DNA of 64,000 nt from Chloroflexota bacterium (GTDB lineage Bacteria; Chloroflexota; Dehalococcoidia; Lucifugimonadales; UBA3495). Under the pieces are notes generated by a model, which ran no database searches, had not been told where the DNA came from, and worked only from the letters and a program-made list of their open reading frames with translations. This document shows positions 3,021 to 56,776 of this stretch, piece by piece; position 1 is the first letter of the stretch; each line of letters opens with the position of its first letter. A program made the translations under genes and the position numbers. The stretch is taken from contig VXTR01000052.1 in NCBI GenBank assembly GCA_009837355.1, forward strand, positions 8,600-72,599, given 5' to 3'.

Positions 3021-5426
3021 ATGACTACCCGTATTTTCGGTTCCGGCATTCGGCGGCGGGAGGACCCCCGCCTGATTACCGGTCAGGCCGCCTATACCGA
3101 CGACATCAAGTTGACCGGAATGGTACACGCTGCCATCCTGCGCAGCCCCCATGCTCACGCCCGCATCACCGGCATCAACACCGACGCTGCTAAAGCCGCC
3201 CCCGGCGTGCTGGCCGTCTATACCGGCGCGGACATCGAGGGAGTGCTGAACCCCATACCCTGCGCCTGGGCCATTCCCGACTCCGACCTCAAAGCCGTCG
3301 CCTATCCGGCCATCGCCAGCGACACCGTTCGCTACGTCGGCGACGCCGTGGCGGTCGTGGTGGCGGAAAATCGCTACCAGGCTGAGGACGCTCTGGAACT
3401 TATCGAGGTTGACTACTCGCCGCTGCCGACGGTTATCAATCCCGAGAAATCCCTGGACGCCGTATCAAAAAAAAAACAAGAGGACGCGCCCAACAACCAG
3501 GCGTTCCACTGGGTGGCCGCCGGCGGCGACACCGACGCCGCCTTCGCCGATGCCGCCATAACCGTCAGCGAGACCATCAACCAACAGAAACTTATCCCAA
3601 ACCCGATGGAGACCCGCTCCGCCATCGCTTCCTGGTCGCCGGCAATGGGCGAGCTCACCATCTGGAACACCACGCAGAACCCGCACATTGCCCGTTTCGT
3701 AACCTGCTTGGTTACCGGCGTTGCAGAGCACAAAATCCGCGTGATTGCGCCGGAAGTGGGCGGCGGGTTCGGCGCCAAGATTGCTGTCTATCCCTGGGAA
3801 ATGATTACCGCCTTCTGCTCCATGCAGTTGGGGGTCCCCGTCAAGTGGACGGAAACCCGCACCGAGAACTACATGGCCACCACCCACGGGCGCGACCACG
3901 TTGAATACGTAGAGATGGCCGCCAACGCCGACGGCAAGGTAACCGCCGTGCGTAGCGTGGTCTATGCCGGTATGGGCGCTTACCTGTCCACCGCCGCGCC
4001 GGGCATCCCGACGATTCTGCACGGCCTGATGTACTCCGGACCCTACGACATCGCCAACATCAAGGCCGACGTGTACGGCGTCTTCACCAACTCCACGCCC
4101 GTTGAGGCGTACCGCGGCGCCGGCCGTCCGGAAGCGACGTTCCTGCTGGAGAGGCTGATGGACAAGGTGGGCGACGCCGTGGGCATCGACTCGGTGGAAG
4201 TACGCCGCCGCAACCTAATCGAACCCTTTGACAACAACCGCGACGTCGCCATCGGCATCACCTACGACAGCGGCAATTACTCCAACGCGCTGGACCAGTT
4301 GTTGGGACACGTCGGCTACGACCAGTTCCGCAACGACCAGGCCCACGAGCGCGATCATGGAACTTTCCGGGGCATCGGGGTCGCCTGCTACTGCGAAATC
4401 TGCGGGCTTGGCCCCTCCCAGGTGGCCGGCGCCGTTGGATTCGGAGGCGGGTTGTGGGAATCCGCTACGGTGCGGATTTACGCTACCGGCAAGGTCAACG
4501 TGTTCATCGGCACGTCGCCCCACGGCCAGGGTGAGGAAACCACCTTCGCCCAAATCGTCGCCGACGAAATCGGCGTTGACGTGGACGACGTGGAAGTGGT
4601 GCACGGCGACACGGACACCACGCCCATGGGCTGGGGCACCTACGGCAGCCGGACCACCGTCGTCGGTGGCGCCGCCGTCGCCCTGACCATGCGCAAGCTC
4701 CGTGACAAGGCCAAGGTTATCGCCGCCCACCTGCTGGAGGCGGACGAGGCAGACATTGAGTACGCCGACGGACAGTTCTTCGTGCGGGGCGCGCCCGACC
4801 GGGCCCAGAGCATCCAGGACGTTGCGTTACAGGCCAACGTGGCCTGGAACCTGCCGGAAGGCATCGAGCCGGGTATGGAAGCCAGCACCTACTACGACCC
4901 GCCCAACTTCAGCTATCCCTTTGGGGCGCACGCGGCCATAGTCAGCATTGACCCGGACAACGGGCACATCACGCTGGACCGCTATGTCGCCGTTGACGAC
5001 TGTGGCCCGCAAATCAACCCCATGGTGGTCGAAGGACAGGTTCACGGCGGCGTGGTGCAAGGTGCCGGCCAGGCTCTCTGGGAGGGCGCCGTCTATGACG
5101 ACAACGGTCAGCTGCTCACCGGCTCCATGATGGACTATGCCATCCCGCGGGCCCACATGGTGCCGGACATAGAGGTGCATTCCACCGTAACGCCGTCGCC
5201 GCACAACCCGCTGGGCGTGAAAGGCATCGGCGAAACCGGCACCATCGCCTCCACCGCCGCCATCTACAGCGCAGTGATGGACGCCTTGAAGCCCATGGGA
5301 ATCGGCAGCCTGGATATGCCGCTGACTCCCGAGCGGGTCTGGCGCGCCATTCAGGAGAGCGGCTACACCGGCAACGGACACAGCCATAACCACGGCCACG
5401 ACCATGGCCATGGACACCAGCACTGA
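3021..5426 (+). CDS. Molybdopterin-binding large subunit, form II CoxL-like (putative, substrate unknown)
   Basis: 801 aa with xanthine dehydrogenase-family large-subunit architecture. The active-site loop reads AYRGAGR (nt 4107-4127), not the AYxCSFR of verified CO dehydrogenases. C-terminal tail is GNGHSHNHGHDHGHGHQH. Confidence 0.9.
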   Translation: MTTRIFGSGIRRREDPRLITGQAAYTDDIKLTGMVHAAILRSPHAHARITGINTDAAKAAPGVLAVYTGADIEGVLNPIPCAWAIPDSDLKAVAYPAIASDTVRYVGDAVAVVVAENRYQAEDALELIEVDYSPLPTVINPEKSLDAVSKKKQEDAPNNQAFHWVAAGGDTDAAFADAAITVSETINQQKLIPNPMETRSAIASWSPAMGELTIWNTTQNPHIARFVTCLVTGVAEHKIRVIAPEVGGGFGAKIAVYPWEMITAFCSMQLGVPVKWTETRTENYMATTHGRDHVEYVEMAANADGKVTAVRSVVYAGMGAYLSTAAPGIPTILHGLMYSGPYDIANIKADVYGVFTNSTPVEAYRGAGRPEATFLLERLMDKVGDAVGIDSVEVRRRNLIEPFDNNRDVAIGITYDSGNYSNALDQLLGHVGYDQFRNDQAHERDHGTFRGIGVACYCEICGLGPSQVAGAVGFGGGLWESATVRIYATGKVNVFIGTSPHGQGEETTFAQIVADEIGVDVDDVEVVHGDTDTTPMGWGTYGSRTTVVGGAAVALTMRKLRDKAKVIAAHLLEADEADIEYADGQFFVRGAPDRAQSIQDVALQANVAWNLPEGIEPGMEASTYYDPPNFSYPFGAHAAIVSIDPDNGHITLDRYVAVDDCGPQINPMVVEGQVHGGVVQGAGQALWEGAVYDDNGQLLTGSMMDYAIPRAHMVPDIEVHSTVTPSPHNPLGVKGIGETGTIASTAAIYSAVMDALKPMGIGSLDMPLTPERVWRAIQESGYTGNGHSHNHGHDHGHGHQH

Positions 5427-5455
5427 CCGGCCACGGAAAAGGAGGACTGATTGCA

Positions 5456-6334
5456 ATGTTTGCAGCAGAGTTTGAATACCGCAAGGCCGGCTCCATCGCG
5501 GAAGCGGTACAGTTGCTGGCCGACAACCCGGACGCCAAGCTGCTGGCCGGCGGCCACAGCCTGATTCCGTTGATGCGGTTCCGCCTGGCCCGCCCGGAGT
5601 TGCTCATCGACATCGGCGGCATCGCCAACCTGCGGGGCATCACCGTCAGCGGCGATACCATCAACATCGGAGCGCTGACTACTCACGCCGAAATCGCCGC
5701 GTCTGCCGAAGTGCAGCAGGCCAACGGATTGCTGGCAGAGGCGGCCGGCGGCATCGGCGACCCGGCAGTGCGCAACCGGGGAACCATCGGTGGCAACCTG
5801 GCCCACGCCGACCCTGCGTCAGACTGGGCTACCGTGCTGACCGCGCTGGGCGCAACGGTGTCGGCACAGGGACCATCGGGCAGCCGCACCATCGCGGTGG
5901 CCGACCTCATTGAGGACGCCTTCGCAACCGCGCTGGCCGAAAATGAGCTGATTGCCACGGTTTCCGTGCCGACCCTGGCCGCCAACCAGCGGGCGGAGTA
6001 CGCCAAGATGGCCCATCCGGCCAGCTTCTACGCCGTAGTGGGCGGCGCGGTGGTGGTAACCATGGACGGCGATCGCTGCACGGCGGCGTCCGTGGCCGTC
6101 GGTGGTCTGACGCCGCGCCCGGTGAAAGCGCCGTCGGTGGAGCAAGCATTAGCCGGAACCACGCTGACCATGGACAGCATCGCCGACGCTACGGCGCGCC
6201 TGAGCGACGACCTCAGCGCTGCCGGAGTGGACATCATCGGCGACGTGTATGCCTCCGCCGATTTCCGGGCCAGCGTAGCCCCGGTAGAGGTGAAGCACGC
6301 CCTGCTTCACGCCATTGGGCTGGCGCACCACTAG
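5456..6334 (+). CDS. FAD-binding medium subunit (CoxM/CutM-like)
   Basis: 292 aa with an N-terminal FAD-binding PCMH-type motif (LLAGGHSLIPLM). It lies directly downstream of the S and L genes, giving an S-L-M order. Confidence 0.88.
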   Translation: MFAAEFEYRKAGSIAEAVQLLADNPDAKLLAGGHSLIPLMRFRLARPELLIDIGGIANLRGITVSGDTINIGALTTHAEIAASAEVQQANGLLAEAAGGIGDPAVRNRGTIGGNLAHADPASDWATVLTALGATVSAQGPSGSRTIAVADLIEDAFATALAENELIATVSVPTLAANQRAEYAKMAHPASFYAVVGGAVVVTMDGDRCTAASVAVGGLTPRPVKAPSVEQALAGTTLTMDSIADATARLSDDLSAAGVDIIGDVYASADFRASVAPVEVKHALLHAIGLAHH

Positions 6335-8903: not shown

Positions 8904-10253
8904 TCACACCGGCGGCGTGAGCTCAACGCCCAGTGCCTGCTCGCACCACGCCGCCGCTGACAATAAACGGCTCTCCGCGAAGGGCGACGCAATCAGCTGT
9001 ATCGACAGAGGCAGGCCCGATTCCGCCAGACCGGACGGGAGGGCGATCGCCGGCAGGCCACAGGATGTCCACGGCCCCTGAAAGGCCGGGTCGCCGGTGT
9101 TGGTGCGGTCGGCTTGGGACGGCGCCGGGGTAGCCGGGGTCAGCAACACGTCGCACTGCTGCGAGAGTTTCTGCATATCGTCGATAAACGTCCGCCGCCG
9201 CTCCAACGCCCGGGCGTACACGATGCCGTCGGTTGCCAGGCCATCGGCCAGCATTGCGCGCAGCTTGGGCTGGTAGTCCTCGGCCTGGTTACGATACATC
9301 GGTTCGTGGAAGGATGCCGCCTCCACCGCCATTATCAGCAACTGGTCGTTGAAGGCCGTTTCGATGCTGTCGGGCATCGGCAGTTCTTCAATCTCGGCTC
9401 CCGCCTGTGCCAGCTGCTCGGCAACACCGTCCAGATGGCGCCGGGTTTCGGTATCGGCTCGCTCGTAGAAATAACGGCGGAGCAGGCCGATGCGCGGGAG
9501 AGGTGGGTCCGCAATGGCCGAAAGATAATCTCCCACCGGCTCCCGGGAGGATACCGGGTCGGCAGCGTCAGGCCCGGCCATCACCTGCAAGAGCAGCGCG
9601 GCGTCTTCCACCGTACGCACCAGCCAGCCCACGGTGTCGAGGTTCCAACTCACCGGAACAACGCCGCGCCGGCTCACCCGCCCGAAGGTCGGCTTGAACC
9701 CGACCACGCCGTTGTACGCCGCCGGGCGCAGCACCGAGCCCACGGTTTGGGAACCCATTGCCGCCGGGCACATCCTCGACGCCACGGCGACGGCCGAGCC
9801 GCTGCTGCTGCCGCCGGGGGTATGGGCCGGGTTCCAGGGGTTGAACGTCGGAGATGGGTCCAGGCAGGCGAACTCGGTGGTAACCGCCTTGCCCAGCATG
9901 ATTGCGCCGGCCCGTTTGAGCAGCGTCAGGGACACGGCGTCGTAGTCCGGCACAAAGTCCTTATAGACCTCGCTGCCGGCGCGGGTGGGGATGCCGGCGG
10001 TATAGTAGATGTCCTTCATGCCGATGGGCACGCCGTGCAGCGGGCCCAGGGGGCGGCCGCGGGATATGGCGGCGTCGGCGCCGGCAGCGTCAGCGAGCAC
10101 GGTTTCCCGGTCAACATAAACCCAGGCTTGTAGCCGCTCATCCAGCGATTCGATGCGGTCGAGACAAGCCTCAGCCAGTTCGGTGGCGGTGAGGCGTCGC
10201 TGGGCGATGGCGCGGGCAGCTTGGGCCGCGGTGAGTTCGTTGGGGTTGGGCAT
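8904..10253 (-). CDS. Amidase-signature (AS) family amidase
   Basis: 449 aa. Catalytic Lys context GVPIGMKD, Gly/Ser-rich GGSSSGSAVAVA, and GSVLRPAA nucleophile region. Confidence 0.88.
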   Translation of the reverse strand: MPNPNELTAAQAARAIAQRRLTATELAEACLDRIESLDERLQAWVYVDRETVLADAAGADAAISRGRPLGPLHGVPIGMKDIYYTAGIPTRAGSEVYKDFVPDYDAVSLTLLKRAGAIMLGKAVTTEFACLDPSPTFNPWNPAHTPGGSSSGSAVAVASRMCPAAMGSQTVGSVLRPAAYNGVVGFKPTFGRVSRRGVVPVSWNLDTVGWLVRTVEDAALLLQVMAGPDAADPVSSREPVGDYLSAIADPPLPRIGLLRRYFYERADTETRRHLDGVAEQLAQAGAEIEELPMPDSIETAFNDQLLIMAVEAASFHEPMYRNQAEDYQPKLRAMLADGLATDGIVYARALERRRTFIDDMQKLSQQCDVLLTPATPAPSQADRTNTGDPAFQGPWTSCGLPAIALPSGLAESGLPLSIQLIASPFAESRLLSAAAWCEQALGVELTPPV

Positions 10254-10294
10254 GAAGATACACCTCCGCTAGTTCATCAACGTTAGGGAGCCGG

Positions 10295-11716
10295 TTACAC
10301 TCCCGGCGGGCGCCGCTCTCCCCAGTCCGTTGCCTGTTCGTAAGCATAGGCCAGGCGGAACAGGGTCGTTTCGTCGAAGGCGCGGCCGGCGATTTGCAGG
10401 CCGATGGGCAGACCCGATGCGGTGAAGCCGCAATTGATGGACAGGGCCGGCAGATTCGCCAGGTTGAACGGCGCGGTGAACCCCCGCCGTCCCTTGAAGC
10501 CGGTGATGACGTCTGCTTTTGTGCCCAGTCCGGCCGAGTCAGGTATCAGGGTGGCCGGCACCGAGGAGGCTGGCATTATCAAGGCGTCAACACCTTCCAG
10601 CGCTCCCAGAATCTGCCGGCGGAGAACATCCCGCAAGCGCGCCGCCTTCTGATACGCCCTGGACGGTATCACGCTGCCCATGAGCAGCCGCACCTGGTTG
10701 TTGTGGTCAAGCTCGCGCAGTTGTTCCGTGGATATGATGTCCCAGTTTAACATTGCGGCGTCGCTGCTGATGATGGCGTAGGAAATTTCCGACGAATTGA
10801 CGATGAGGGGCAGGGAGACCTCGCTGACTTCGGCGCCCAGACCGGCGAGAACCTGGGTGGCGGCAAGCACGGCGTCGCGGACCTCGGGGTCGTTGGCGTC
10901 GGTATGCACCCGCTCGGTGACGATGCCCAGCTTCAGACCCTTGACGTTGCCGTCCAGAGCGGCGGCATAATCCGGCACTGGCACGTCCCATGTCTGCTGG
11001 TCGTTGGGGTCGTGGCCGGCGATAGCCGCCAGGGTGTTGGCGCAGTCGGTAACGGTGCGGGAAACGGGGCCGGCCGTGTCCATGGACCAGCAGGCGCCGA
11101 ACACGCCATGGCGGCTGACCAGTCCGAGGGTGGGCCGGATACCCACCAGGCCACAGAAGGCCGCTGGGCCGCGGATGCTGCCGCCGGTGTCCTCACCTAG
11201 CGACGTAGCGCACAGAAAGGCCGCCGTCGCCGCGCCGGAACCACTGCTGGACGTGCCGGGGTTGCGGTTGGTGTCCCAAGGGTTGCGAGGCCGGCCGTAG
11301 GGATGACGGAAGGCGTCGCCGCTGGCGTACTCGCTCATGTTGAGCTTGCCCAACAGCACCGTGCCGGCGTCGCGCAGGCGCGACATGATGGTTGCGTCTT
11401 CGTCCGGGACGTTTTCGGCAAGGATGGTCGAGCCGTTGGTGGTTACGATGCCGGCGGTGTCGAACTGGTCCTTCACGGCTACTGGGACGCCATGCAGGGG
11501 CCCCCGGCGGTTGCCGGCGGCGATTTCAGCATCGGCCTGGCGAGCGTCGGCCCGAGCCCGTTCCGGTGTAACGGTGATGTAGGAGGCATAGTTGCCGTCC
11601 AGTCGGGCGATGCGTTCCAGGTAAGCCTCCGTAGCCTCCGTCGAGGACACCTCGCCGGCGGCGATGCGCATGCCCAGTTCAGTGGCCGAAAGGTAGCAAA
11701 TGCTCTCGTCCGCCAT
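10295..11716 (-). CDS. Amidase-signature (AS) family amidase (GatA/AtzE-like)
   Basis: 473 aa with GVPVAVKD, GTSSSGSGAATAA and DTGGSIRGPAAFCG. GGAGG RBS. Start lies 2 nt after the stop of the upstream micro-ORF. Confidence 0.9.
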   Translation of the reverse strand: MADESICYLSATELGMRIAAGEVSSTEATEAYLERIARLDGNYASYITVTPERARADARQADAEIAAGNRRGPLHGVPVAVKDQFDTAGIVTTNGSTILAENVPDEDATIMSRLRDAGTVLLGKLNMSEYASGDAFRHPYGRPRNPWDTNRNPGTSSSGSGAATAAFLCATSLGEDTGGSIRGPAAFCGLVGIRPTLGLVSRHGVFGACWSMDTAGPVSRTVTDCANTLAAIAGHDPNDQQTWDVPVPDYAAALDGNVKGLKLGIVTERVHTDANDPEVRDAVLAATQVLAGLGAEVSEVSLPLIVNSSEISYAIISSDAAMLNWDIISTEQLRELDHNNQVRLLMGSVIPSRAYQKAARLRDVLRRQILGALEGVDALIMPASSVPATLIPDSAGLGTKADVITGFKGRRGFTAPFNLANLPALSINCGFTASGLPIGLQIAGRAFDETTLFRLAYAYEQATDWGERRPPGV

Positions 11717-11718
11717 GA

Positions 11719-11919
11719 TTATGCCTCCTGTTTGCGCGCCGTTGCGGACACGATGATGGGCAGGGCTTCGATCCCTGCTACGTCAGGCTCCGTGATGGCG
11801 TCCAGCGCTTCCAGCAGGCCGTTGAGAGACTCACGAACCTCCGGGAGCAGGTCGTCCGGTATGGTAATTCCCGAGGCTTTGGCCAGAGCCATAACCTCGG
11901 CGTCGTTCAAATCCGCCAC
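11719..11919 (-). CDS. 66-aa GatC/AtzG-like small partner protein of the amidase (DUF4089-like)
   Basis: GTG 11919 preceded by GAGAGG. Sequence: VADLNDAEVMALAKASGITIPDDLLPEVRESLNGLLEALDAITEPDVAGIEALPIIVSATARKQEA. It forms the 3' end of a 300-aa shadow ORF, and its TAA lies 2 nt before the amidase ATG. Confidence 0.6.
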   Translation of the reverse strand: MADLNDAEVMALAKASGITIPDDLLPEVRESLNGLLEALDAITEPDVAGIEALPIIVSATARKQEA

Positions 11920-12004: not shown

Positions 12005-12033
12005 TTGGAAAGGGGTCGCCTTTGTGATATAAT
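12005..12033 (+). promoter_or_regulatory. Sigma-70-type promoter: TTGGAA, 17-nt spacer, extended -10 TGaTATAAT
   Basis: TTGGAA at 12005-12010 and TATAAT at 12028-12033 with TG at -15/-14. About 40 nt upstream of ATG 12076. Confidence 0.6.
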
Positions 12034-12075
12034 GCACGAGGCAAGAGCCAAAAAATTTCCCTGAGAGGAGAAATC

Positions 12076-12363
12076 ATGGAAGGCAAAGTTCAACTGGAGA
12101 TTACCTACTGCGTGCCTTGACAGCACCACGCTACCGCCACGTGGATGGCGAACGAGTTTTTCCGGGCCTACGGCGCGGACGCCGCAATCACTATCTCCCC
12201 GCGCGGCCAGGGTATCATGGAAGTGTTCCTGGACGGCGAGAAGATTTTCGACAAGAAGGCTGAGGGGAACATCTACCCCGACCTTTCCCGCGTCCGGCAG
12301 ATGAAAGAAGTCATCTCCGCCAAGATTGCCAACGTTGACTTGGCCGTTGCTGCAGACGACTAG
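12076..12363 (+). CDS. Rdx/SelW-like selenoprotein with in-frame UGA (Sec) at 12118-12120
   Basis: ATG 12076 with GAGAGGAG RBS is in frame with the ORF-track ORF 12145..12363. Translation is MEGKVQLEITYCVPUQHHATATWMANEFF..., which puts the TGA at the CxxU position of the Rdx-family CxxC/CxxU motif. Confidence 0.8.
12121..12153 (+). promoter_or_regulatory. Candidate bacterial SECIS hairpin region downstream of the UGA
   Basis: Two alternative stems: CCACG (12126-12130) with CGUGG (12140-12144), or CGCCA (12135-12139) with UGGCG (12146-12150) and a CGUGGA loop. Not folded computationally. Confidence 0.4.
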
Positions 12364-12388: not shown

Positions 12389-12424
12389 GGCCGCTGCCTG
12401 TGTTGACGGGCAGCGGCCATTTTT
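12389..12424 (+). terminator. Rho-independent terminator after the selenoprotein gene
   Basis: GGCCGCTGCC / GGCAGCGGCC 10-bp stem followed by ATTTTTG. Confidence 0.75.
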
Positions 12425-12510
12425 GCCTCCGCGGGTCGGTGAGGCCGGCGCGTTGGTGTGGTATAATAAAATAGACCTATTCTCTGCATACCGACTGATT
12501 GACTATTGCC

Positions 12511-16564: not shown

Positions 16565-17329
16565 ATGGAAATCGGACTCGATTATATGCAGATGCGCAGC
16601 CGGGCGCAGCACTATGGATTGCGCTTGACGGGTATCGGACTGCTCGTGGCTGGCATTGTATTGGTTGGCATTGGCCTGGCCTATTATGGAAACCTGTACT
16701 GGCTGCGATCCGGAGTAGAGAACTACGCTGCCCAACGCCAGGACGCGACTCTACTGAACGAGGTCACAGCCTCCCAGGATTTGAAGAACGGGGCGATAGT
16801 CTCAGCGTATGCCCTGCCGGCTGGAGCCTACGCGGAGACGGTGGAAGAGTTGGGCTTTACTCCACTGAAGCAATCCGATGCTAAGCCTCTGGGTACACTG
16901 GCGCCGGCCCAGCGGGTGATAGTGCCGGAGTTGGGCATCAATGTAACTATGAACCAGATCAACCTTACCGGGGCCTCCATTGTAAATGACGTGGATGGCA
17001 TCGACCCGGGGGAGTATGAAGCAGTTCAGGCTAATCCTGGCGAGCGCGGTGCAATGTGGCTGTTTGGAGCGGCCGACAAGGGCGCGGACGCTTTCGGCGG
17101 TTTGAACGACGCAGCTGGGCTGCTGACCGAAGGCAACGACCTGTTGATATACGTGAACAGCGGCACGCAGATTTATCTATATGGGGCCACGCACACCGAC
17201 GTTATACCTGCCGACGACCTGCGGTTGAGCAGCACGGACCGGGCTACCATTCACCTGGCGGTGCCCACTCCTGCGGGACTGTATGACCACTTCCTGGTGT
17301 TGAGCGGCGAGTTGGTGGGCGTGAAGTAA
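16565..17329 (+). CDS. Membrane-anchored sortase-like protein lacking the catalytic His/Cys/Arg
   Basis: 254 aa with an N-terminal TM helix (LTGIGLLVAGIVLVGIGLAYY). The C-terminal region follows the sortase layout, but FGAAD replaces TGHR, LAVPTP replaces LxTCxP and DHFLV replaces xxRxV. Aligned by eye from memory. Confidence 0.45.
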   Translation: MEIGLDYMQMRSRAQHYGLRLTGIGLLVAGIVLVGIGLAYYGNLYWLRSGVENYAAQRQDATLLNEVTASQDLKNGAIVSAYALPAGAYAETVEELGFTPLKQSDAKPLGTLAPAQRVIVPELGINVTMNQINLTGASIVNDVDGIDPGEYEAVQANPGERGAMWLFGAADKGADAFGGLNDAAGLLTEGNDLLIYVNSGTQIYLYGATHTDVIPADDLRLSSTDRATIHLAVPTPAGLYDHFLVLSGELVGVK

Positions 17330-33105: not shown

Positions 33106-33630
33106 ATGCCACGAGCGACACTTGATTTGCAGAATGCCGGCGACCTGTCCGCAGTGGGCGGACAGTGGAAATTTGCCTACGGGTTTGTGCCGGGGGAACC
33201 CAACGAGGGTTTCGTGAACGAGGCGGAGGGTTCGCCATGCCGGCTGCCGGATTACGACGATTCCGGCTGGGAGGCTTGCGAGGATCTGGCCGCCTGGCGT
33301 CGGCGGGGCGTGTCCTTCATCTGGTATCGCATCAAGGCCACGCTGCCGGCCACCGTGGGAGGCAGGTCAATCGAGGGCGCGCGCTGCCTGTTTGAGTCGT
33401 GCATCGACGACTACGGCGAAATCTGGATCAACGGGGAGTGCGACCGGGAGCGGGCGACGGTGCAGGGGTTCAACGTGCCGCAACGGGTGGTGGTGTCTGC
33501 CGAGCCCAAGGCCGGCGACGAGGTCAGCATCGCGATACTGGCGATGAACGGCCCGTTGGCGGCGCCGGGCGGTGCAGTGTTCGTGCGCTACGCCACGCTG
33601 GCCTTTGAGTGGCGGGAGCCGGGTTACTAG
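33106..33630 (+). CDS. Hypothetical protein with a galactose-binding-like (GH2 sugar-binding-like) domain
   Basis: 174 aa, strong AAGGAGG RBS. 'FESCIDDYGEIWINGE' resembles the jelly-roll motif of GH2 N-domains. Confidence 0.5.
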   Translation: MPRATLDLQNAGDLSAVGGQWKFAYGFVPGEPNEGFVNEAEGSPCRLPDYDDSGWEACEDLAAWRRRGVSFIWYRIKATLPATVGGRSIEGARCLFESCIDDYGEIWINGECDRERATVQGFNVPQRVVVSAEPKAGDEVSIAILAMNGPLAAPGGAVFVRYATLAFEWREPGY

Positions 33631-33942: not shown

Positions 33943-34572
33943 TTACTCCTGCGGGGGCCATTGGGTGCCGCCTTCGGCAGGACGGTCGCTTGCTGACAAG
34001 GCGAAACCGTCGGCGACGGTCCGTTGAAACTCACTGAGGATGACGGCGCCCCACTCGGCGGCCTTGCCGACCCGATGGGCAGTGCGCCGGCCCCGGGTCT
34101 GCTGCCGCCTTTCGGCTTCGTCGCTGACGGACGCAGCGGCTTGGGCGACCATTTCGTCCATGGCGTCGATGGACGGCACCAGGGAGCGGGCGGTTTCGAT
34201 GAAGCGGGCAACCTCGCCCATGTTTTCGTCAAAGACCACGAAGACGGGGACGGTGCCGGCCCGGTGTTCAGGCAGGAAACTGTTGGTCAGCTCCAACTCG
34301 TCGTCGCGGTTGAATACACCCAGGCGGATGTTGTCGCTGGCGTCGGCCAAGCGCAGTATGGCCGGCGTGGTGGACATGGCGTCGCCGCACCAGTCGGAGG
34401 TGAAAATGGCCAGGTTGACGGGCTGAGCCAGGCCGTTGAAATAGTCCAGCACATTACCCGGGATCTCCACGCCGGAGTGAATCTGGAGAAATGGGTCCTT
34501 GTTGACTTTGATAATGTCGATGTACTGGTTGGTGGTCATGCCCTGGGCAAATTTTTCGGCTGACAGCGCCAT
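33943..34572 (-). CDS. Thioredoxin-like family protein
   Basis: 209 aa. 'AIFTSDWCGDAMSTTP' shows a WCxD thioredoxin-fold position with a single Cys. 'VPVFVVFD' strand. Confidence 0.65.
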   Translation of the reverse strand: MALSAEKFAQGMTTNQYIDIIKVNKDPFLQIHSGVEIPGNVLDYFNGLAQPVNLAIFTSDWCGDAMSTTPAILRLADASDNIRLGVFNRDDELELTNSFLPEHRAGTVPVFVVFDENMGEVARFIETARSLVPSIDAMDEMVAQAAASVSDEAERRQQTRGRRTAHRVGKAAEWGAVILSEFQRTVADGFALSASDRPAEGGTQWPPQE

Positions 34573-34679
34573 TGGGGGCCTCCTGGTAATGTGCTTTGCC
34601 GTTTATGTGCGGCCAGTGCTAAAATCGGCGGCGAAGTACTGCATCGCTCGCCGGCGAGCGGGCCGAACGGAGCCGCCCG

Positions 34680-35108
34680 TTGACTACTGCTACTGACCGT
34701 ACCGGAGTGTACCTTAAATACGCCCTGTTCTGCCGGGAAACCGAGGAAGGGGACGGGGATAACCTCAGTTTCAAGGGCATCATTGACCTTGTGGACATCC
34801 CGATGCCGGAGAGTCCGCCCAGCGACGATGGCCCGCGGGTGCTGTCCGAGGTGGACGCGCACCTGGCTTTCTGCATCGCGGGCGCCAACGCCGGCCGGCA
34901 CACGCTGGAAGTGTCGATACGGGCGCCGGGGGCGAGCCTGTCCAGTCCGCCGCCGCAGGAAGTGGAATGGGAGGAAGGGATTTTCTTCCAACGTTGGATC
35001 AAGCCCTTTCGCATCCCGGTAACCCGCCTGGGCCGGCACGTGGCGGCGATAGCGTTCGACGGGATGCCGCTGGGGGAGGCGAGCTTCCTGGTGCGCTTGG
35101 CGCCATGA
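34680..35108 (+). CDS. Hypothetical protein (142 aa)
   Basis: TTG start with GGAG 9 nt upstream. No family recognised. Confidence 0.45.
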   Translation: MTTATDRTGVYLKYALFCRETEEGDGDNLSFKGIIDLVDIPMPESPPSDDGPRVLSEVDAHLAFCIAGANAGRHTLEVSIRAPGASLSSPPPQEVEWEEGIFFQRWIKPFRIPVTRLGRHVAAIAFDGMPLGEASFLVRLAP

Positions 35109-35117
35109 GGAGAAACA

Positions 35118-35705
35118 ATGGATGTTCGTCTTAACCGTGAACTGAAAGCATACTGCGCAGATTTCGCGCCGGTCCGCCAGATTATACGAGACTTGGGAGC
35201 GGTTTTTGTCGAAGTCAAGGAGCAGGTGGACTGCTATTACCACTTGCCGCTGGGTAGTTCGGACGAGGGAAACCGCCGGCTCAAGCTCCGTGTCGAGAAG
35301 GGAAAAGGGGAACTGATATATTACTGCGAGCGACAGGAGAGCAACGCCCGCACCAGCCGGTTTCAACTGTGGGAAACGAACGACCTTGGGGTTGGGGAAG
35401 TGCTGGAGAGGGCCCTCGGAACCAGGGCTGTAGTCCGTAAGCGTCGGGAACTTTGGGAAAAAGATAACGCGATTTTCAACCTGGACGCGGTGGAGGAGAT
35501 AGGCCAAATTTTTGAGGTGGAGGTTCGTCAGAAAGACGGGTACGATATCGACTCCCAAGTCAGGGAGTACCGCTGCCTCTTTGAGCCTTACTTAGGCGGC
35601 TACATCCTCGGCTCCAACGAAGACCTGATTGTTGCGTCCGGATACAAGTTGCCCCAACCTGGGGAAAGAATTGCGAACCTCAGCGGAGGGTCTGATACAA
35701 GATGA
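35118..35705 (+). CDS. CYTH-domain protein (class IV adenylate cyclase/triphosphatase-like)
   Basis: 195 aa. 'RLKLRVEKGKGELIYYCERQ', 'VRKRRELW' and 'IFEVEV' follow the CYTH beta-barrel charge pattern. Its stop overlaps the next start (ATGA). Confidence 0.65.
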   Translation: MDVRLNRELKAYCADFAPVRQIIRDLGAVFVEVKEQVDCYYHLPLGSSDEGNRRLKLRVEKGKGELIYYCERQESNARTSRFQLWETNDLGVGEVLERALGTRAVVRKRRELWEKDNAIFNLDAVEEIGQIFEVEVRQKDGYDIDSQVREYRCLFEPYLGGYILGSNEDLIVASGYKLPQPGERIANLSGGSDTR

Positions 35706-37390
35706 GACTGATGAAGTCCTGCATAGCTCTTTCGACACTGCTCCTGGCGGTGGTGGCGGCCTTTGGCGCCAATGCGTCGCCGGTTGCAGCTCAAACTGCT
35801 CCCACCGAGACTCCGGGGAAACCCAAAGTAGTCGCCGGGTCTAACTCGGGCGAAGTAGTGGTCGAGTGGAAGGCCGTCAAGGGAGCGAAATATTATCGAA
35901 TTGGGTGGATTTCCAAAGAAGATAATGACGCTGCCAGAATTGGCAACCGCGACTGGCTGGAAGCGTTTACCTCCGTGAGCGTGGCTAACAGAGGGCAGAC
36001 TTCCCACACGGTTAAGCGGCCCACTCCGGGCGCGGAGTACTGGTTCATTGTGGGTAGCAGTGACCGGCGGTATGGCAATCCGCAGTGGTCGTTATGGTCC
36101 GACTTGGTGAAAGCGTCGGGAGGGCCGGAGACCTGCGCCGGCGACCGGGACGCGCTGGCGGCGCTGTATAACGCTACCGATGGCGCCAACTGGCGGAACA
36201 ATGTGAACTGGCTCAGCCGTACTGTGCCCATTGGCAACTGGTTCGGCGTATCCACCGACGGCGACGGATGCGTGGTAGTTCTATACTTGGACAACAATGG
36301 TCTGAGCGGCCAACTGCCGCCGGAGCTGGGCAGCCTGGCCAGGCTGGACACCCTGGATCTTGACGGCAACCGCCTCAGCGGGGAGATACCCGCCGAACTG
36401 GGCAACCTTACTCGGTTGACCGTTTTGTCATTCGATCACAACAACCTGAGCGGGACGATACCACCGGAGTTGGGCCGCCTCAGCAACCTCACCGATCTCG
36501 AGTTGTGGAACAACGAACTAACCGGCGAGATTCCTGACGAGATAGTCGGCCTTACCAGCCTGAGGACGCTTGATCTGGATGATAACAAGATGACCGGATC
36601 GCTTCCGGCCGCACTTGGAGGTCTTACCAATCTCGGGGCGCTATGGCTCAGCGACAATCAGTTCACCGGAGAGATACCGGCAGAGTTCGGAAATCTGACC
36701 CGACTGAACTGGCTGGGCATACACAGCAACGAGCTGACCGGAGAGATACCGGCGGAGCTGGGCAACCTGTCCAATCTGACGGTGCTAACCCTCCGCAACA
36801 ACCAGCTGAGCGGCGAGATACCGTCGGAGCTGGGAGGCATGTCAAACCTTGAGGTGTTGTACCTTTCCAACAATTGGCTGGAAGGAGCAATCCCCCCTGA
36901 GCTGAGTACGTTAGCCAACTTGAACAATCTGCGGTTGAACAGCAATCGACTGACGGGCGAGATACCGGTTGAGTTGAGCGACCTGTCCAACCTGGAGGAA
37001 CTGTACCTTCTCGAGAATGAATTGGAGGGAGAAATTCCCTCGGAGTTGAGCGAGTTAACCGAGTTGAAGGTATTGAATTTGAACCGGAACCGGTTGAGCG
37101 GCGCGATACCGTCCGAGTTGGGCGATCTGACCAATCTGGAGGAACTGCACCTGGATAACAACCAACTGAGCGGGGCGATACCGTCCGAGTTGGGGAATCT
37201 GGCCAAGCTGGAGCAACTGCATCTGGACACCAACCGGCTGACTGGCGAAATACCGGCTCAACTGGACGATCTGAATGAACTGGTGCTGCTGTACATCATC
37301 AGAAACGAGTTGACCGGGTGCATACCGGCAGGCTTGCAGGATGTGGCGCAGAATGACCTGGACGAACTACAACTGCCAATTTGTCAGTGA
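35702..37390 (+). CDS. Secreted FN3 + plant-specific-type leucine-rich-repeat protein
   Basis: Signal peptide MRLMKSCIALSTLLLAVVAAFGANA. FN3-like 'PGKPKVVAGSNSGEVVVEWKAVKGAKYYRIGW'. LRRNT-like cap 'RDALAALYNATDGANWRNNVNW...WFGVSTDGDGCVVVLYL'. Fifteen 24-aa repeats LxxLxLxxNxL(S/T)GxIPxELGxL. Confidence 0.9.
   Translation: MRLMKSCIALSTLLLAVVAAFGANASPVAAQTAPTETPGKPKVVAGSNSGEVVVEWKAVKGAKYYRIGWISKEDNDAARIGNRDWLEAFTSVSVANRGQTSHTVKRPTPGAEYWFIVGSSDRRYGNPQWSLWSDLVKASGGPETCAGDRDALAALYNATDGANWRNNVNWLSRTVPIGNWFGVSTDGDGCVVVLYLDNNGLSGQLPPELGSLARLDTLDLDGNRLSGEIPAELGNLTRLTVLSFDHNNLSGTIPPELGRLSNLTDLELWNNELTGEIPDEIVGLTSLRTLDLDDNKMTGSLPAALGGLTNLGALWLSDNQFTGEIPAEFGNLTRLNWLGIHSNELTGEIPAELGNLSNLTVLTLRNNQLSGEIPSELGGMSNLEVLYLSNNWLEGAIPPELSTLANLNNLRLNSNRLTGEIPVELSDLSNLEELYLLENELEGEIPSELSELTELKVLNLNRNRLSGAIPSELGDLTNLEELHLDNNQLSGAIPSELGNLAKLEQLHLDTNRLTGEIPAQLDDLNELVLLYIIRNELTGCIPAGLQDVAQNDLDELQLPICQ
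36272..37351 (+). repeat. 15 tandem 72-nt coding repeats (LRR units)
   Basis: Protein-level 24-aa periodicity counted by hand from residue 191. The repeats are coding, not an intergenic array. Confidence 0.85.
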
Positions 37391-37549: not shown

Positions 37550-39898
37550 CTACCCGCCGTTCCGCTCCCAGAGGGCTTCCAGGACGGCGCCGGGGTTCAT
37601 GGGCAGGTTCTCCAGGCGCGCGCCGGTGGCGTTGGCGATGGCGTTGCCGATGGCCGCCATGGGCGGCACCAGGGAGACCTCGCCGACGCCGCGCACGCCC
37701 AGCGGATGGCCCGGGTTGGGCACTTCCACGATTACCGTGTCGATCATGGGCAGGTCGAGGGCGGTGGGCATCCGGTAGTCCAGGAAGGACGAGTTAAGCA
37801 TCTGGCCGTCGCCATCGAAGAAGTACTCTTCGTTGAGCGCCCAGCCGATGCCCTGCACTGCGCCGCCCTGTATCTGGCCTTCCACGTAGCTGGGATGGAT
37901 GGCCTTGCCGCAGTCCTGAATGGCGGTGAAGCGCAGCAGCTCAACCTTGCCGGTGTCGGGGTCAACCTCCACGTCGGCGACGTTGATGGCGAAGGCGTTG
38001 CCCACGCCGGCGGGATTGGCCGTGCCGTGCCCGACGATGGGACCGCCGGTGCCGTTGAGACGGCGGGCCAGCTGGTCAAAGGTCATGCGCAGGGCGTCGT
38101 CGGACTTGTGGGCCAAGCTGCCGTCTTCCTGGTATTCCACGTCCTCGACGGGAACGTCCCAGATGCGGGCGGCGCGTTCAATCATCTGGCGGCGCACGTC
38201 CTCGCCGGCCTGATAGACGGCGGTGCCCATCTTGAAGGTAACGCCGCTGCCGCCGGCGCCGCTGCTGTAGCCGATGCTGTCGGTGTCCACGATGGACGGC
38301 TTGATGCGCTCGGCCGGCAGGCCCAGCACCTCGGCGACGTGCATGGCCATGGCGGCCCGCGAGCCTCCGATGTCCGGTGAGCCTTCAATCAAGCTCACGG
38401 TGCCGTCGGGCATCACGCTGGCGACGGCGCTGGCCGGGCCGGTGCCGTTGAACCAAGCGCCGGCGGCGATGCCCCGTCCGGTGAGGCGTCCGGGCGCGGA
38501 AGGTTCCGGCACCGGAGAGGCCAAATGAGGGTGTTCCTGGGTCGCTTGCAGAACCTCAACCATGCCGACACGCCGGTAAGTGGGGCCGGCGATCTGGCGG
38601 CTGCCCTCTTTGGAGGCGTTGTTGAGGCGGAACTCCACCGGGTCAACGCCCAGCTTTTCGCAGAGTTCGTCGATGGCTTGCTCGGCAGCGAATGAAGCGG
38701 CCGGCGATCCGGGTGCGCGGTAAGCGGCGGCCTTGGGGACGTTGGTCACTACGTCGTAACCCTCAACAAAGCCGTTGGGTACATAGTAGGGGCCGAACAT
38801 GGTGCGGCACCCGCTGGGCACCGGCGAACCGGGGAATGCGCCAGCTTCGTAGATGAGGCTGGCCTGGGCCGCGGTAAAGCGTCCGTCGCGAGTGCCGCCG
38901 ACCTTCACCTTGATGATGCAGCCGGAGGTAGGGCCGGTGCCGGTGAACACTTCGGTACGGCTCATGGCGATTTTGACCGGGCGGCCGGTTTTGCGGGCCA
39001 GGGCAGCGACGACCGGCTCCAGGTAGCAGCCGCCCTGACCTTTTCCGCCGAAGCCGCCGCCGATCTCCATGGGGACGACGTTGACTTGGCCGACCGATAT
39101 GCCGAGGATGCGGCTGGTATGGTCGCGCAGGGCGAAGTGGCCCTGGCTGCTGGCCCAGATAGTTACAGTGCTGTCGGTATTCCAGCGGGCAGTTGCCGAA
39201 TGGGGTTCGATGTAGCCCTGGTGCACTTGGCTGGTACGGTATTCGCGTTCTACGATGGCGTCGGCTTCGGCAAATCCGGCCTCCACGTCGCCCAGCGTAG
39301 CCTGGAAATGGTTGGATACGTTGGAGCCGTCGCCGGTGTCGCCCTCGGCCCAACCGCCGGAGCGTTGAGCCGGATTGGCCAGGGTTACCAGACGCTCGTG
39401 AACCAGCGGCGCGCCCGGGGCCATGGCATCCTCGGCGGTGAGCACGGGCGGCAGGACTTCCCAATCCACGTCAATCAGCGCCATCGCTTCCTCGGCCAGG
39501 TGGGGCGAGTCGGCGGCGATGGCGGCAACTGCGTGACCACGGTACAGGGCCTTCTCGCGGGCCATCACGTTGCGGCTGTAAAAGCCGTAGTTCACCGCTG
39601 CCCCTTCTTCCTGATCCTTGATCTCGGCAGACACGTCCGGGAAGTCGGCGGACGTTACGACCGCGTGGACGCCGGGCAGAGCCAGGGCGCGGCTGGCGTC
39701 GATGCTGCGGATGCGGGCGTGGGCGTGGGGACTGCGCAGGATTTTGCCGTGGAGCATACCGGGAAGGTGAATGTCGGCGGCGTAGCGGGCGCGCCCCATC
39801 ACCTTGTCCGGCCCGTCGTGGCGGACGGGGCGGGTCCCGACGACCTTATAGTTCTCATCGGGATTGGACAGGACGATGTTGGGTTTATAGTCAAGCAT
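37550..39898 (-). CDS. Xanthine dehydrogenase/aldehyde oxidase-family molybdopterin-binding subunit (orphan large subunit)
   Basis: 782 aa. 'VGTRPVRHDGPDKVMGRARYAADIHLPGMLHGKILRSPHAHARI' a/b-hammerhead N-terminus. Mo-binding domains. No adjacent Fe-S or FAD subunit genes. Confidence 0.88.
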   Translation of the reverse strand: MLDYKPNIVLSNPDENYKVVGTRPVRHDGPDKVMGRARYAADIHLPGMLHGKILRSPHAHARIRSIDASRALALPGVHAVVTSADFPDVSAEIKDQEEGAAVNYGFYSRNVMAREKALYRGHAVAAIAADSPHLAEEAMALIDVDWEVLPPVLTAEDAMAPGAPLVHERLVTLANPAQRSGGWAEGDTGDGSNVSNHFQATLGDVEAGFAEADAIVEREYRTSQVHQGYIEPHSATARWNTDSTVTIWASSQGHFALRDHTSRILGISVGQVNVVPMEIGGGFGGKGQGGCYLEPVVAALARKTGRPVKIAMSRTEVFTGTGPTSGCIIKVKVGGTRDGRFTAAQASLIYEAGAFPGSPVPSGCRTMFGPYYVPNGFVEGYDVVTNVPKAAAYRAPGSPAASFAAEQAIDELCEKLGVDPVEFRLNNASKEGSRQIAGPTYRRVGMVEVLQATQEHPHLASPVPEPSAPGRLTGRGIAAGAWFNGTGPASAVASVMPDGTVSLIEGSPDIGGSRAAMAMHVAEVLGLPAERIKPSIVDTDSIGYSSGAGGSGVTFKMGTAVYQAGEDVRRQMIERAARIWDVPVEDVEYQEDGSLAHKSDDALRMTFDQLARRLNGTGGPIVGHGTANPAGVGNAFAINVADVEVDPDTGKVELLRFTAIQDCGKAIHPSYVEGQIQGGAVQGIGWALNEEYFFDGDGQMLNSSFLDYRMPTALDLPMIDTVIVEVPNPGHPLGVRGVGEVSLVPPMAAIGNAIANATGARLENLPMNPGAVLEALWERNGG

Positions 39899-40029: not shown

Positions 40030-40623
40030 TCAGTGGCGGCCGCGCTCCTTCCCGGGTCCGCCCCGAAATCCGCCTTGCTTGCCTCCGATGTAATCGTCGG
40101 TATCGTGGCCGGCGGGATTGGCCAGGAAGTCAGGACGCTGGGTTTGCCAGGCGGCGATGGATTCCGCCTGCGCCTGCGTAATGCGTTCGGCAGACACCAG
40201 CCTGGCCAGCGTCGCTGTAGTGCGTTGGGGGCTCGCCGCTCCGGCCATGGCGGCGGCCACACCGTCGGTATCCGCCGGGCGCCCCAGGAACCAGGCGTTG
40301 GCCTCGTCAGCCTGTTCCTGGGTGAGCATCCCATTGGCGGCTAACAGGCCGGTGTAGGAGGTGAACCGGGCGTCGGCCTGTTCCGCCGGGTCGGGTTGTT
40401 CCACGCCAAACCACCCGCCGATGCGGGCAAATGGTCCGCGGCTGTGTTCGAAGCCGTGGCGGGGATGGTCAAAGCCGTATCCGGAGTACTTGCTGGCAGC
40501 AATCCGATCCGAGCGGTGGTCGGCCTTGACGGCGATACCGAGCGCCAGGGCAACGATGAGCAGAGCCGAAACCCCGGCCAAGATGAACCAGCGCTTCCGC
40601 ATGGTACGTATCCTGTTGAACAT
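40030..40623 (-). CDS. Membrane-anchored hypothetical protein downstream of the two-component system
   Basis: GGGAGGA RBS. One N-terminal TM helix (WFILAGVSALLIVALALGIAV). No family recognised. Confidence 0.5.
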   Translation of the reverse strand: MFNRIRTMRKRWFILAGVSALLIVALALGIAVKADHRSDRIAASKYSGYGFDHPRHGFEHSRGPFARIGGWFGVEQPDPAEQADARFTSYTGLLAANGMLTQEQADEANAWFLGRPADTDGVAAAMAGAASPQRTTATLARLVSAERITQAQAESIAAWQTQRPDFLANPAGHDTDDYIGGKQGGFRGGPGKERGRH

Positions 40624-44568: not shown

Positions 44569-45639
44569 TTACAGGAAGTGGGGGATGACGTACTTTCCGA
44601 AGAGGCGGATGCTGTTCATTATCTTGCTGTGGGGCAGGTTGCCCATCTGCATGAAGCAGAGAATCTGGTCAACGCCGGCCTCGCGGTACTTTTCGATGGT
44701 CTTGATGACGGTTTCGGGGCTGCCCATGGCGAAGGCGCCGGAAGCGATGTGGTCGTCGGCGGTCTTATCGACGCGTTCCTCCTGGACGGCGTTGACGGCG
44801 AACTGGTAGCTCTGGGGAACGTTGCGCCCGGCCCAGGGGGCGTAGAGTTCCTCCGCTTTGCCAACGAACCACTCGCCCTCGCGGGCAGCGGACTCGTAGG
44901 CTTCCTCGTCGGTGTCGGCGACGTGAACCATGCAGAGGGCGGCGATGTTGTCGTTGACCATCCGGCCGATGGGCCGGGCGTTTTTCACGGCATCGCGGTA
45001 AATCTGCACCCGCTCCACCAGCTGCTCGTGTCCGCCCAGGTTAAAGCAGAGGACACCGACGCCAAGCTCGCCGGCCTCGCCGAATGAAGTGGGCTGGCTG
45101 CAGGCCATCCACATGGGCGGGTGCGGGTTCTGCACGGGCTTGGGGATTACGGAACGGGGCGGGATGTTGTAGAACTCGCCGGAGTGGGAGAAAGGATCTT
45201 CCGTCCACATCCGGGGAATCATCTCAATGGCCTCGCGCCACTGGGCCTTGGTCGTTTCGGGGTCAACCTCAAAGCCGTCCATCTCGATGAGGGTGGTGGA
45301 GCGTCCCGTGCCCAGATCCATGCGCCCATCGCTAACGATATCCAGCACGGCGGCGCGCTCGGCAACACGGACGGGATGGTTGTAAGCGCCGGGCAGCAGG
45401 GCGACGGCGTGGCCGATGCGGATGCGCTTGGTGCGCTGGGAGATGGCCCCATACAGCACCTCCGGCGCGGAGCAGTGGGAAAACTCCCGCAGGAAGTGGT
45501 GCTCCACCGTCCAGAAGTAATCAAAGCCAACGTCGTCGGCCAATTCCACCTGGGCCATCACCTGCTTGTAACGCTCGGCTTCAACGCCGGGGTAGTGGGG
45601 TTCGGGAACCTGGATTTCGTACATCAATCCGAATTTCAT
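44569..45639 (-). CDS. LLM-class (luciferase-like) flavin/F420-dependent oxidoreductase
   Basis: 'MKFGLMYEIQVP...LADDVGFDYFWTVEHHF' is the typical LLM N-terminus. 356 aa. Confidence 0.85.
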   Translation of the reverse strand: MKFGLMYEIQVPEPHYPGVEAERYKQVMAQVELADDVGFDYFWTVEHHFLREFSHCSAPEVLYGAISQRTKRIRIGHAVALLPGAYNHPVRVAERAAVLDIVSDGRMDLGTGRSTTLIEMDGFEVDPETTKAQWREAIEMIPRMWTEDPFSHSGEFYNIPPRSVIPKPVQNPHPPMWMACSQPTSFGEAGELGVGVLCFNLGGHEQLVERVQIYRDAVKNARPIGRMVNDNIAALCMVHVADTDEEAYESAAREGEWFVGKAEELYAPWAGRNVPQSYQFAVNAVQEERVDKTADDHIASGAFAMGSPETVIKTIEKYREAGVDQILCFMQMGNLPHSKIMNSIRLFGKYVIPHFL

Positions 45640-50298: not shown

Positions 50299-50601
50299 TC
50301 AGGCCGGTTCCAGCCAGTGCTGGTACACGTCCACCAGCAGCGTATCGTCTGGATTGCCGGCGTAGTCTGGCCACAGGTCGGTCTGGCGCAGCCGGACGCG
50401 GTACAGCGGCTGCCGCGGCAACCCGTCGCCCCCATGCGCCAGCGATTCAGGATTGGGATACGTGCCGCACAGCGCGTCCACCACGCCGGTGTGCCCCTGG
50501 ATGTAGGCCGGCGTGCGGAAGTGATGGGCCGGCGCTCCAACGCGCACGCGCACAGCAGCGCCGTCAGGGTAGCGGACGGTTTCGGAAGAAATGGTAGTCA
50601 T
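50299..50601 (-). CDS. Nitrile hydratase beta-subunit C-terminal half (stand-alone, SH3-like)
   Basis: 100 aa. 'HHFRTPAYIQGHTGVVDAL...PLYRVRLRQTDLWPDY...TLLVDVYQHWLEPA' follows the GHxRxPxYxRGKxG...LYxVxF...LWG...VxVDxWExYLE pattern of NHase beta C-termini. Confidence 0.8.
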   Translation of the reverse strand: MTTISSETVRYPDGAAVRVRVGAPAHHFRTPAYIQGHTGVVDALCGTYPNPESLAHGGDGLPRQPLYRVRLRQTDLWPDYAGNPDDTLLVDVYQHWLEPA

Positions 50602-50625
50602 GGCATCCGCACTCAGGCTTGAGCA

Positions 50626-54494: not shown

Positions 54495-54686
54495 TCAGCC
54501 GGCTTGAGCGATAATGCCGCCCATAGTGTTGGGGGGAATGTCTTTACCATGATGACGTGGGATGGGCACCATCCTGCCGTCCTTTATTGCCTTCGTATGC
54601 TTGCGGCCCTGATTGATTGTCCACCCGTCGTTGCGAAAGGCCCGCAGAACGTCGGAGATGGTAAAACCGGGAACCCGAGGCGGCAT
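54495..54686 (-). CDS. hicA: HicA-family mRNA interferase toxin
   Basis: 63 aa from ATG 54686. 'VLRAFRNDGWTINQGRKHTKAIKDGRMVPIPRHHGKDIPPNTMGGIIAQAG' fits the HicA dsRBD-like pattern. ATGA overlap with the upstream gene. Confidence 0.8.
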   Translation of the reverse strand: MPPRVPGFTISDVLRAFRNDGWTINQGRKHTKAIKDGRMVPIPRHHGKDIPPNTMGGIIAQAG

Positions 54687-56731: not shown

Positions 56732-56776
56732 AAAAAACTGCTGCTCGTCAGTATCAGGGATTCGTCGCTGTAGCGA

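Follow-up and report, generated by a model that had tools for sequence, protein, structure and literature searches.

A SelW-like (Rdx) gene of a marine SAR202/Dehalococcoidia bacterium with an in-frame TGA that is very probably read as selenocysteine

Bacterial SelW-like selenoproteins are known from metagenomes of the Sargasso Sea and of GOS (PMC1088965, PMC2398784), and Cys homologs of the SelW-like proteins were noted to be few or absent in the organisms that use selenocysteine (Sec) (PMC1794560). SelB is considered a signature of the Sec-decoding trait (PMC1273633). Eukaryotes have a SECIS element of another structure, which is located in the 3' UTR (PMC1088965), and about 13% of bacterial selenoprotein genes are reported to be without a canonical SECIS (PMC13326102). 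The Rdx family corresponds to Pfam PF10262 (formerly PF05169); its Cys-containing members are represented among solved structures by 2OKA (P. aeruginosa), 2OBK (P. fluorescens), 2FA8 (A. tumefaciens Atu0228), 2OJL (B. parapertussis), 2P0G (V. cholerae) and 3DEX (S. avermitilis). In the bacterial SECIS of the E. coli fdhF type, a hairpin closely follows the UGA within the coding region; its small apical loop contains G-U, and the spacing is about 11-20 nt.

The locus considered here lies in a window of 64 kb (by the window we mean the whole stretch of DNA that was analysed). We believe that it is, very likely, a monocistronic gene of a marine SAR202/Dehalococcoidia bacterium and that it encodes a SelW-like (Rdx) selenoprotein of 95 residues, with its UGA decoded as Sec. 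The original prediction for this DNA was that ORF calling had missed a Sec-containing N-terminus of an Rdx/SelW-like protein; we confirm the observation, which goes beyond chance, and the comparisons given below support its interpretation.

The gene and its place in the Rdx family

The full coding sequence is assigned to positions 12076-12363 of the forward strand (the stop TAG 12361-12363 included) on the basis of Pfam, PDB and fold matches and of codon variation; the other features of the gene described here are on the same strand. A TGA at 12118-12120 stands in frame between ATG 12076-12078 and this stop, at the very position where the frame had been predicted to be interrupted, and a second ATG is found at 12145-12147. 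The frame thus reads MEGKVQLEITYCVP, TGA, QHHATATW and then ATG 12145, and the conceptual translation with the TGA marked passes from MEGKVQLEITYCVP across the TGA into QHHATATWMANEFF and further. The second ATG is the internal Met24 codon; it is the start used by ORF callers, and its position as the start in the ORF list, 23 codons after the in-frame ATG 12076, is as originally predicted.

Both signals that had been predicted upstream of ATG 12076 are present. The Shine-Dalgarno sequence GAGAGGAG occupies 12063-12070, 5 nt upstream of the ATG. A consensus scan gives a sigma-70-type promoter-like site at 12005-12033, which consists of TTGGAA (12005-12010), a 17-nt spacer and the extended -10 element TGaTATAAT (12025-12033, with the hexamer TATAAT at 12028-12033). 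The site has 10 of 12 consensus matches in addition to the TG, and the scan found 3 sites against 0.2 expected from shuffles; strings of the type TTGnnn...TGTGATAnAAT also occur upstream of the gene in a subset of relatives. Downstream, the same kind of scan gives a strong candidate intrinsic terminator at 12389-12428, a 13-bp G+C-rich stem (12389-12418) followed by the T-run ATTTTTGCCT. We presume that the former site serves as the promoter and the latter as the terminator; with the two at its ends, the gene looks like a self-contained, monocistronic transcription unit.

For profile searches, U in the conceptual protein was written as C. The full 95-aa protein matches the Pfam Rdx profile with 51.8 bits (E = 9.8e-14, profile positions 2-65 of 74), while the annotated 72-aa form scores 23.9 bits against a gathering score of 22.6, the region across the TGA adding 28 bits. 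With the same replacement, the score for NCBIfam TIGR02174 (CXXU_selWTH) is 34.0 bits at a cut-off of 34.2, and the Campylobacter equivalog NF041051 is clearly not reached (37.6 vs 88). The best sequence matches in the PDB are the six Cys-containing proteins listed above (E = 2e-8 to 5e-5, residues 2-75). The motif C12-V-P-U15 falls column for column on the C-T-Q-C of 2OKA, 2OBK, 2FA8 and 2OJL, and U15 coincides with their second Cys; the prediction that the TGA occupies the second redox position of CxxC/CxxU is thereby borne out. The segment GIMEVFLDGEKIF aligns with the block G-x-F-x-I-x-x-D-G of the bacterial Rdx proteins in the PDB.

The fold was considered using the AlphaFold model of an ortholog (P0001, 89% identical), which carries Trp at the Sec position and stands in for the window protein (pLDDT 81.2, pTM 0.73). 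The order of its elements is beta1-alpha1-beta2-beta3-beta4-alpha2 (E14-21, H24-44, E45-52, E57-61, E64-68, H79-95); beta1 ends with the Cys, and alpha1 begins with the Sec position. In a Foldseek search with this model, the best 22 PDB matches are all of the SelW family, including mouse SelW 2NPB, and thioredoxins come next; the target-normalised TM-score for the SelW family is 0.75-0.88 and the rmsd is 1.4-3.7 A (1.4-2.1 A for most chains). The claim that the rest of the protein also fits the Rdx/SelW family agrees with both the profile match and the topology of the model.

Conservation across the TGA and the hairpin behind it

A scan of one genome per species gave 80 loci, all from metagenome-assembled genomes of Dehalococcoidia/SAR202; the protein match continues through the stop in 80/80 of them, and the TGA is at codon 15 in 80/80. 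With a 69%-identical relative as the anchor, a scan of contigs from metagenomes gave 80 further loci that form a divergent clade, and the names of their contigs suggest soils and sediments. Together with the window and four exact-match contigs this makes 165 loci. The TGA is found in all 165, each of them has the CxxU N-terminus, and Cys12 and Sec15 are both invariant. The codon of Cys12, the first residue of the redox motif, is TGC (12109-12111) and varies synonymously between TGC and TGT, and the codon of Sec15 is the TGA itself. At the protein level the gene is 81-97% identical among the marine loci; the ortholog on the complete chromosome OZ220464.1 is 97% identical. Cys-containing counterparts, which had been proposed as a point of comparison, do exist at the level of the family, namely the PDB proteins, but none is found among the 165 loci. 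Nor does any ortholog, at the DNA level, begin at the downstream Met without the CxxC-bearing N-terminus.

Within codons 1-14 of the 81 marine sequences, the variable sites number 1 at the first, 0 at the second and 11 at the third codon position; of the 15 codons that vary among codons 1-23, 13 do so purely synonymously. Such third-position variation on either side of the TGA argues for a translated and selected peptide that extends across it; in terms of codon substitution, the comparison shows a reading frame that behaves as translated through the TGA.

These data bear directly on the current annotation. If it were right, TGA 12118 would be a true stop, the product would have 72 residues and start from ATG 12145, and the 14 codons upstream would be a leader ORF or untranslated. 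Such a product is given by ORF callers and by most database entries, and even the truncated protein is just above the Pfam Rdx threshold (23.9 vs 22.6 bits). However, it would be devoid of beta1 and of the entire CxxC/CxxU centre that defines the family, and throughout the 165 loci the protein sequence is conserved, with variation in third positions, over the 14 upstream codons as well as over the 8 that separate the TGA from the ATG. Every lineage has a GGAGG-type motif before the upstream ATG, its flanking sequence differing, whereas no Shine-Dalgarno motif stands before ATG 12145. The divergent clade has GTG (Val) rather than Met at codon 24, and the frame is nonetheless conserved. In addition, ATG 12145 is buried in a conserved hairpin. 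We consider it very improbable that the annotated start is the real one, and return to the reading of the TGA as a Sec codon.

The hairpin in question belongs to a 20-nt block, ACCGCCACGTGGATGGCGAA (12133-12152), which is nucleotide-invariant in the 81 marine SAR202/Dehalococcoidia sequences. If positions are numbered from the U of the UGA as 1, only positions 18, 28 and 33 of the block ACCGCCACGUGGAUGGCGAA (that is, 12135, 12145 and 12150) vary among 164 loci. All four four-fold degenerate sites inside the block are invariant in the marine sequences, compared with 1 of 14 outside it (Fisher p = 0.0016). Conservation and covariation delimit the hairpin at 12135-12150, with the arm CGCCA (12135-12139), the loop CGUGGA (12140-12145) and the arm UGGCG (12146-12150). 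Its stem begins 14 nt and its loop 19 nt after the UGA; there is a G at position 2 of the loop and G-U at loop positions 2-3. The ATG 12145-12147 falls within the loop and the 3' arm.

Positions 18 and 33, both of which are synonymous sites, form C-G in 149 loci and G-C in 15, and the mixed state does not occur, the joint change being seen in the divergent clade; in the 68 unique sequences tested this pair is CG in 59 and GC in 9. The stem 18-22/29-33 has 100% of its cells paired and one compensatory pair in these unique sequences; none of 500 shuffles and no slid control attained the same covariation. A single pair carries it, and one evolutionary event may account for the change. In the window's own sequence the hairpin has 5 bp and an energy of -7.4 kcal/mol and is not the minimum free energy (MFE) fold; in the divergent clade the change A28->G provides a sixth pair and a GUGG tetraloop, and the hairpin, at -12.6 kcal/mol, is now the MFE fold.

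The MFE hairpin after the UGA in the window (9 bp, positions 12-20/24-33, with 63 nt folded) was also considered as a SECIS and rejected: its z-score of -1.07 is like that of shuffles, and in its register 46 cells are unpaired, compensatory changes are absent, and C18G and G33C break the pairing. The original prediction of short hairpins after the UGA stands insofar as they are present and one of them is conserved; yet the MFE one is not, and the conserved hairpin is shorter and in a different register. A conserved structure after the UGA, in any case, was found as the invariant block with its compensatory pair.

We infer that the hairpin 12135-12150 is a SECIS and that it would be bound by SelB. 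Directly 3' of the UGA and with a small apical loop containing G, it has what the criterion of PMC1088965 calls for; the Rfam search gave no family that matches it. The 20-nt element is near-unchanged, with its three variable positions, between marine SAR202 and the divergent soil-like clade in the 164 loci. It is tempting to go further and to propose a minimal SECIS specific to the lineage (the stem of 5-6 bp, the loop GUGG or CGUGGA) and a distinct SelB-mRNA recognition in Chloroflexota; we regard this proposal as unlikely. Were it true, the element could belong to the non-canonical group of about 13% mentioned above (PMC13326102), and the fact that Sec is kept without exception (165/165, no Cys forms) would mark the protein as a core reason for SAR202, abundant bacteria of the ocean, to maintain the entire Sec machinery.

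With the hairpin taken simply as a bacterial SECIS, the expression of the gene may be pictured as follows. Transcription would start from the sigma-70-like promoter 12005-12033, and translation from ATG 12076 behind the strong Shine-Dalgarno site. The ribosome would not terminate at UGA 12118; the hairpin would recruit SelB-GTP-Sec-tRNA(Sec), Sec would be inserted, and translation would proceed through the hairpin to TAG 12361. The product is predicted from the model of the ortholog to have a thioredoxin-like Rdx fold, in which Cys12 would end beta1 and Sec15 would begin alpha1. Its CxxU centre most likely cycles between the thiol/selenol and selenenylsulfide states, and the protein itself is presumably a small cytosolic thiol-dependent oxidoreductase.

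Selenocysteine machinery, genetic code and neighbourhood

No tRNA genes were found in the 64-kb window, Pfam scans of about 40 window ORFs revealed no SelA, SelB or SelD, and tblastn with these three proteins of E. coli returned nothing in the window. For the window and the 164 loci taken together (751 kb), the same probes gave only a C-terminal fragment of SelD at two loci of the soil clade, and ARAGORN detected no tRNA-Sec in the 164 loci. The machinery of this genome is therefore judged from its relatives. Two of the ortholog loci belong to SAR202 cluster bacterium bin87 (L014, MPNC01) and bin22 (L075, MPMM01), which are among the Chloroflexi SAR202 bins in Table 2 of Slaby et al. 2017 (PMC5649159); the GC content is given there as 62.8% for bin87, and it is similar in the window (62.7%). 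According to Table S4 of the same paper, bin87 has three genes of COG1921 (SelA), one of COG3276 (SelB) and one of COG0709 (SelD); the numbers for bin22 are 2, 1 and 1, and all three proteins are present in the other three SAR202 bins as well (PMC5649159). In the 2026 BSepDB paper, the ten bacteria richest in selenoproteins include two Dehalococcoidia MAGs, which have 49 and 46 selenoprotein genes (PMC13326102). The sel genes are thus absent from the window itself, but they are published for relatives that carry the ortholog.

It might be argued that the UGA is read through by a near-cognate tRNA (Trp, Cys or Arg) with no part played by the Sec machinery, the product being CxxW, CxxC or CxxR. 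UGA followed by C is a weak termination context, UGA 12118 is in such a context, and in one entry of the databases (P0008) the Sec position is occupied by Arg (presumably CGA). On the other hand, leaky read-through does not explain why the TGA is kept in 165/165 loci, where one base change to TGC or TGT would give Cys, or why an invariant hairpin with a compensatory pair occurs at SECIS spacing. The motif would be lost if its second redox position were Trp or Arg; genomes that bear the ortholog (bin87 and bin22) encode SelA, SelB and SelD; and in part of the divergent clade the context is UGA-A and not UGA-C. We can give this explanation very little credit compared with Sec insertion.

Elsewhere in the window the genetic code is standard, as shown by TGA ending about 28 of the 66 plausible ORFs, dnaG and an 801-aa molybdenum hydroxylase included. 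The same count effectively refutes a recoding of the TGA as Trp or Gly, which we consider together with the notions of a pseudogene and a sequencing error. It is true that some metagenome gene callers translate this TGA as Trp (P0001-P0007 and P0087) and so record full-length but wrong CxxW proteins; these entries, however, come from short contigs (551-1508 nt), for which the caller probably chose an alternative genetic code. As to a pseudogene or an error, 165 independent assemblies share this TGA, and either side of it is under purifying selection. All three notions together appear to us scarcely credible, and the TGA is further treated as a Sec codon.

Three scans of the window for TGA-bridged ORFs found no second selenoprotein gene. 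The only candidate, at 50299-51048 (minus strand) and with a U-C context, was rejected as a TGA-interrupted gene: it consists of two unrelated adjacent genes in the same frame, a complete PIN-domain gene (50626-51048) and a stand-alone gene for the C-terminal part of nitrile hydratase beta (NHase_beta_C, 50299-50601), which are separated by a TGA and 8 codons and mimic an interrupted gene. At 55451-58369 (minus strand), a lysyl-tRNA synthetase-like gene (530 aa, assigned by sequence only) and a seryl-tRNA synthetase gene (426 aa, assigned by Pfam) are also in the same frame with a TGA between them. SerRS charges tRNA-Sec with serine; its gene is a housekeeping one.

With regard to the neighbourhood, a conserved operon with dnaG-rpoD was considered and rejected: dnaG is downstream in only 19 of the 84 marine loci (L001-L084), and the order amidase, Rdx, dnaG, rpoD seen in the window is common to these 19 only. 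Judged by its neighbours, the gene for the Rdx selenoprotein is a mobile unit. On its other side, two tandem amidase genes (449 and 473 aa, PF01425) are found at 8904-11919 on the minus strand, below a conserved 66-aa ORF without a Pfam match and divergent from the Rdx gene; a promoter-like site TTGACA-17-CAAAAT is at 11984-11956 on the same minus strand. Amidases (COG0154) are among the COGs enriched in SAR202 bins of sponge symbionts (PMC5649159).

A different arrangement is observed in a few loci of the divergent clade (L123, 34-1376; L109, 26-1041; also L137, L112 and L141), where the TGA-containing Rdx gene is directly downstream, on the same strand, of an ORF with a Pyr_redox_2 domain (PF07992, E = 2.4e-19). 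After this ORF, in a shifted overlapping frame, only the C-terminal 115 or so residues of SelD (AIRS_C) are encoded; the fragment is 35-39% identical to residues 231-336 of E. coli SelD. The arrangement resembles a fusion gene of an oxidoreductase and SelD that has decayed or been rearranged beside the selenoprotein gene.

Other genes of the window may be mentioned briefly. A 562-aa protein encoded at 35702-37390 (plus strand) consists almost wholly of leucine-rich repeats (LRR_1, E = 9e-51); eukaryote-like LRR proteins are often reported in sponge symbionts. Two large subunits of Mo hydroxylases of the xanthine dehydrogenase/CoxL type, one of which adjoins an FAD-binding subunit, and a luciferase-like flavin monooxygenase are encoded at 3021-6334 (plus), 37550-39898 (minus) and 44569-45639 (minus); these enzyme families are expanded in SAR202 and sponge-symbiont bins (PMC5649159). 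A HicB-like antitoxin domain is fused to TPR repeats at 54686-55330, and an ATPase of the AAA_21/AbiEii type (E = 3.8e-14) is found at the window edge (63069-63995, minus strand), possibly as a component of a toxin-antitoxin or abortive-infection module. At the thresholds used, Pfam gave no match for five ORFs of 174-368 aa: 34536-35558, 51045-52151 and 40030-40623 (minus strand) and 16565-17329 and 33106-33630 (plus strand).

Annotation and comparison with known systems

The practical value of the observation is in annotation, where a fragment is recorded without its active site. Relatives in the databases are mostly 72-aa fragments; more than 100 clusters from SAR202/Dehalococcoidia are present either as the 72-residue fragment or with Trp at the Sec position. 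The expectation that gene callers truncate the protein and lose the active site is borne out by most entries, and only a few read the TGA as Trp. The mis-called ATG 12145 lies inside the SECIS hairpin, which makes the annotation error systematic. A separate case is P0008 (92 aa, a cluster of 16 sequences on a 1.2-kb contig), with Arg at the Sec position in CVPRQHH, presumably encoded by CGA; it has several other unusual substitutions and could be a decaying copy or the result of a low-quality assembly. The observation also flags the organism as a Sec decoder, and, considering the Dehalococcoidia MAGs with 46-49 selenoprotein genes, other TGA-interrupted genes are to be expected elsewhere in its genome. 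Our general knowledge of selenoproteins is left unchanged, since SelW-like CxxU proteins have been recognised since 2005 as the commonest family of marine bacterial selenoproteins.

The Cys-containing Rdx proteins of known structure share with the window protein the predicted fold, the register of the redox motif and the signature G-x-F/M-E-V-x-x-D-G. They differ from it in having Cys in place of Sec, with C-T-Q-C in solved homologs where the window protein has C-V-P-U, and the identity in structural alignments is about 21-28%. Mouse SelW (2NPB) has the same beta1-alpha1-beta2-beta3-beta4-alpha2 fold (Foldseek E = 7e-5, TM 0.82), but the identity is 16%; a CxxU at the junction of beta1 and alpha1 is common to the window protein, mammalian SelW and the SelT/SelH/Rdx12 group. 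Unlike the eukaryotic SECIS in the 3' UTR, the candidate SECIS of the window is inside the coding sequence. It resembles the E. coli fdhF-type element in the place of the hairpin, the G-U of the apical loop and the order of the spacing, whereas it has a far shorter stem and no evident bulged U, and Rfam has no match for it.

The closest likeness is to the marine SelW-like selenoproteins. They, too, have about 90-100 aa with CxxU near the N-terminus and come from marine bacteria; the in-frame UGA is directly followed by a small hairpin with a G in its apical loop; and the Sec forms far outnumber the Cys forms (165/165 here). The differences are that the SECIS stem of this lineage, at 5-6 bp, is at the short end, and that SAR202/Dehalococcoidia and the soil-like sister clade are not named in the reports on these proteins (PMC1088965, PMC2398784). 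The gene is an ordinary, currently mis-annotated member of a selenoprotein family long known as common in marine bacteria.
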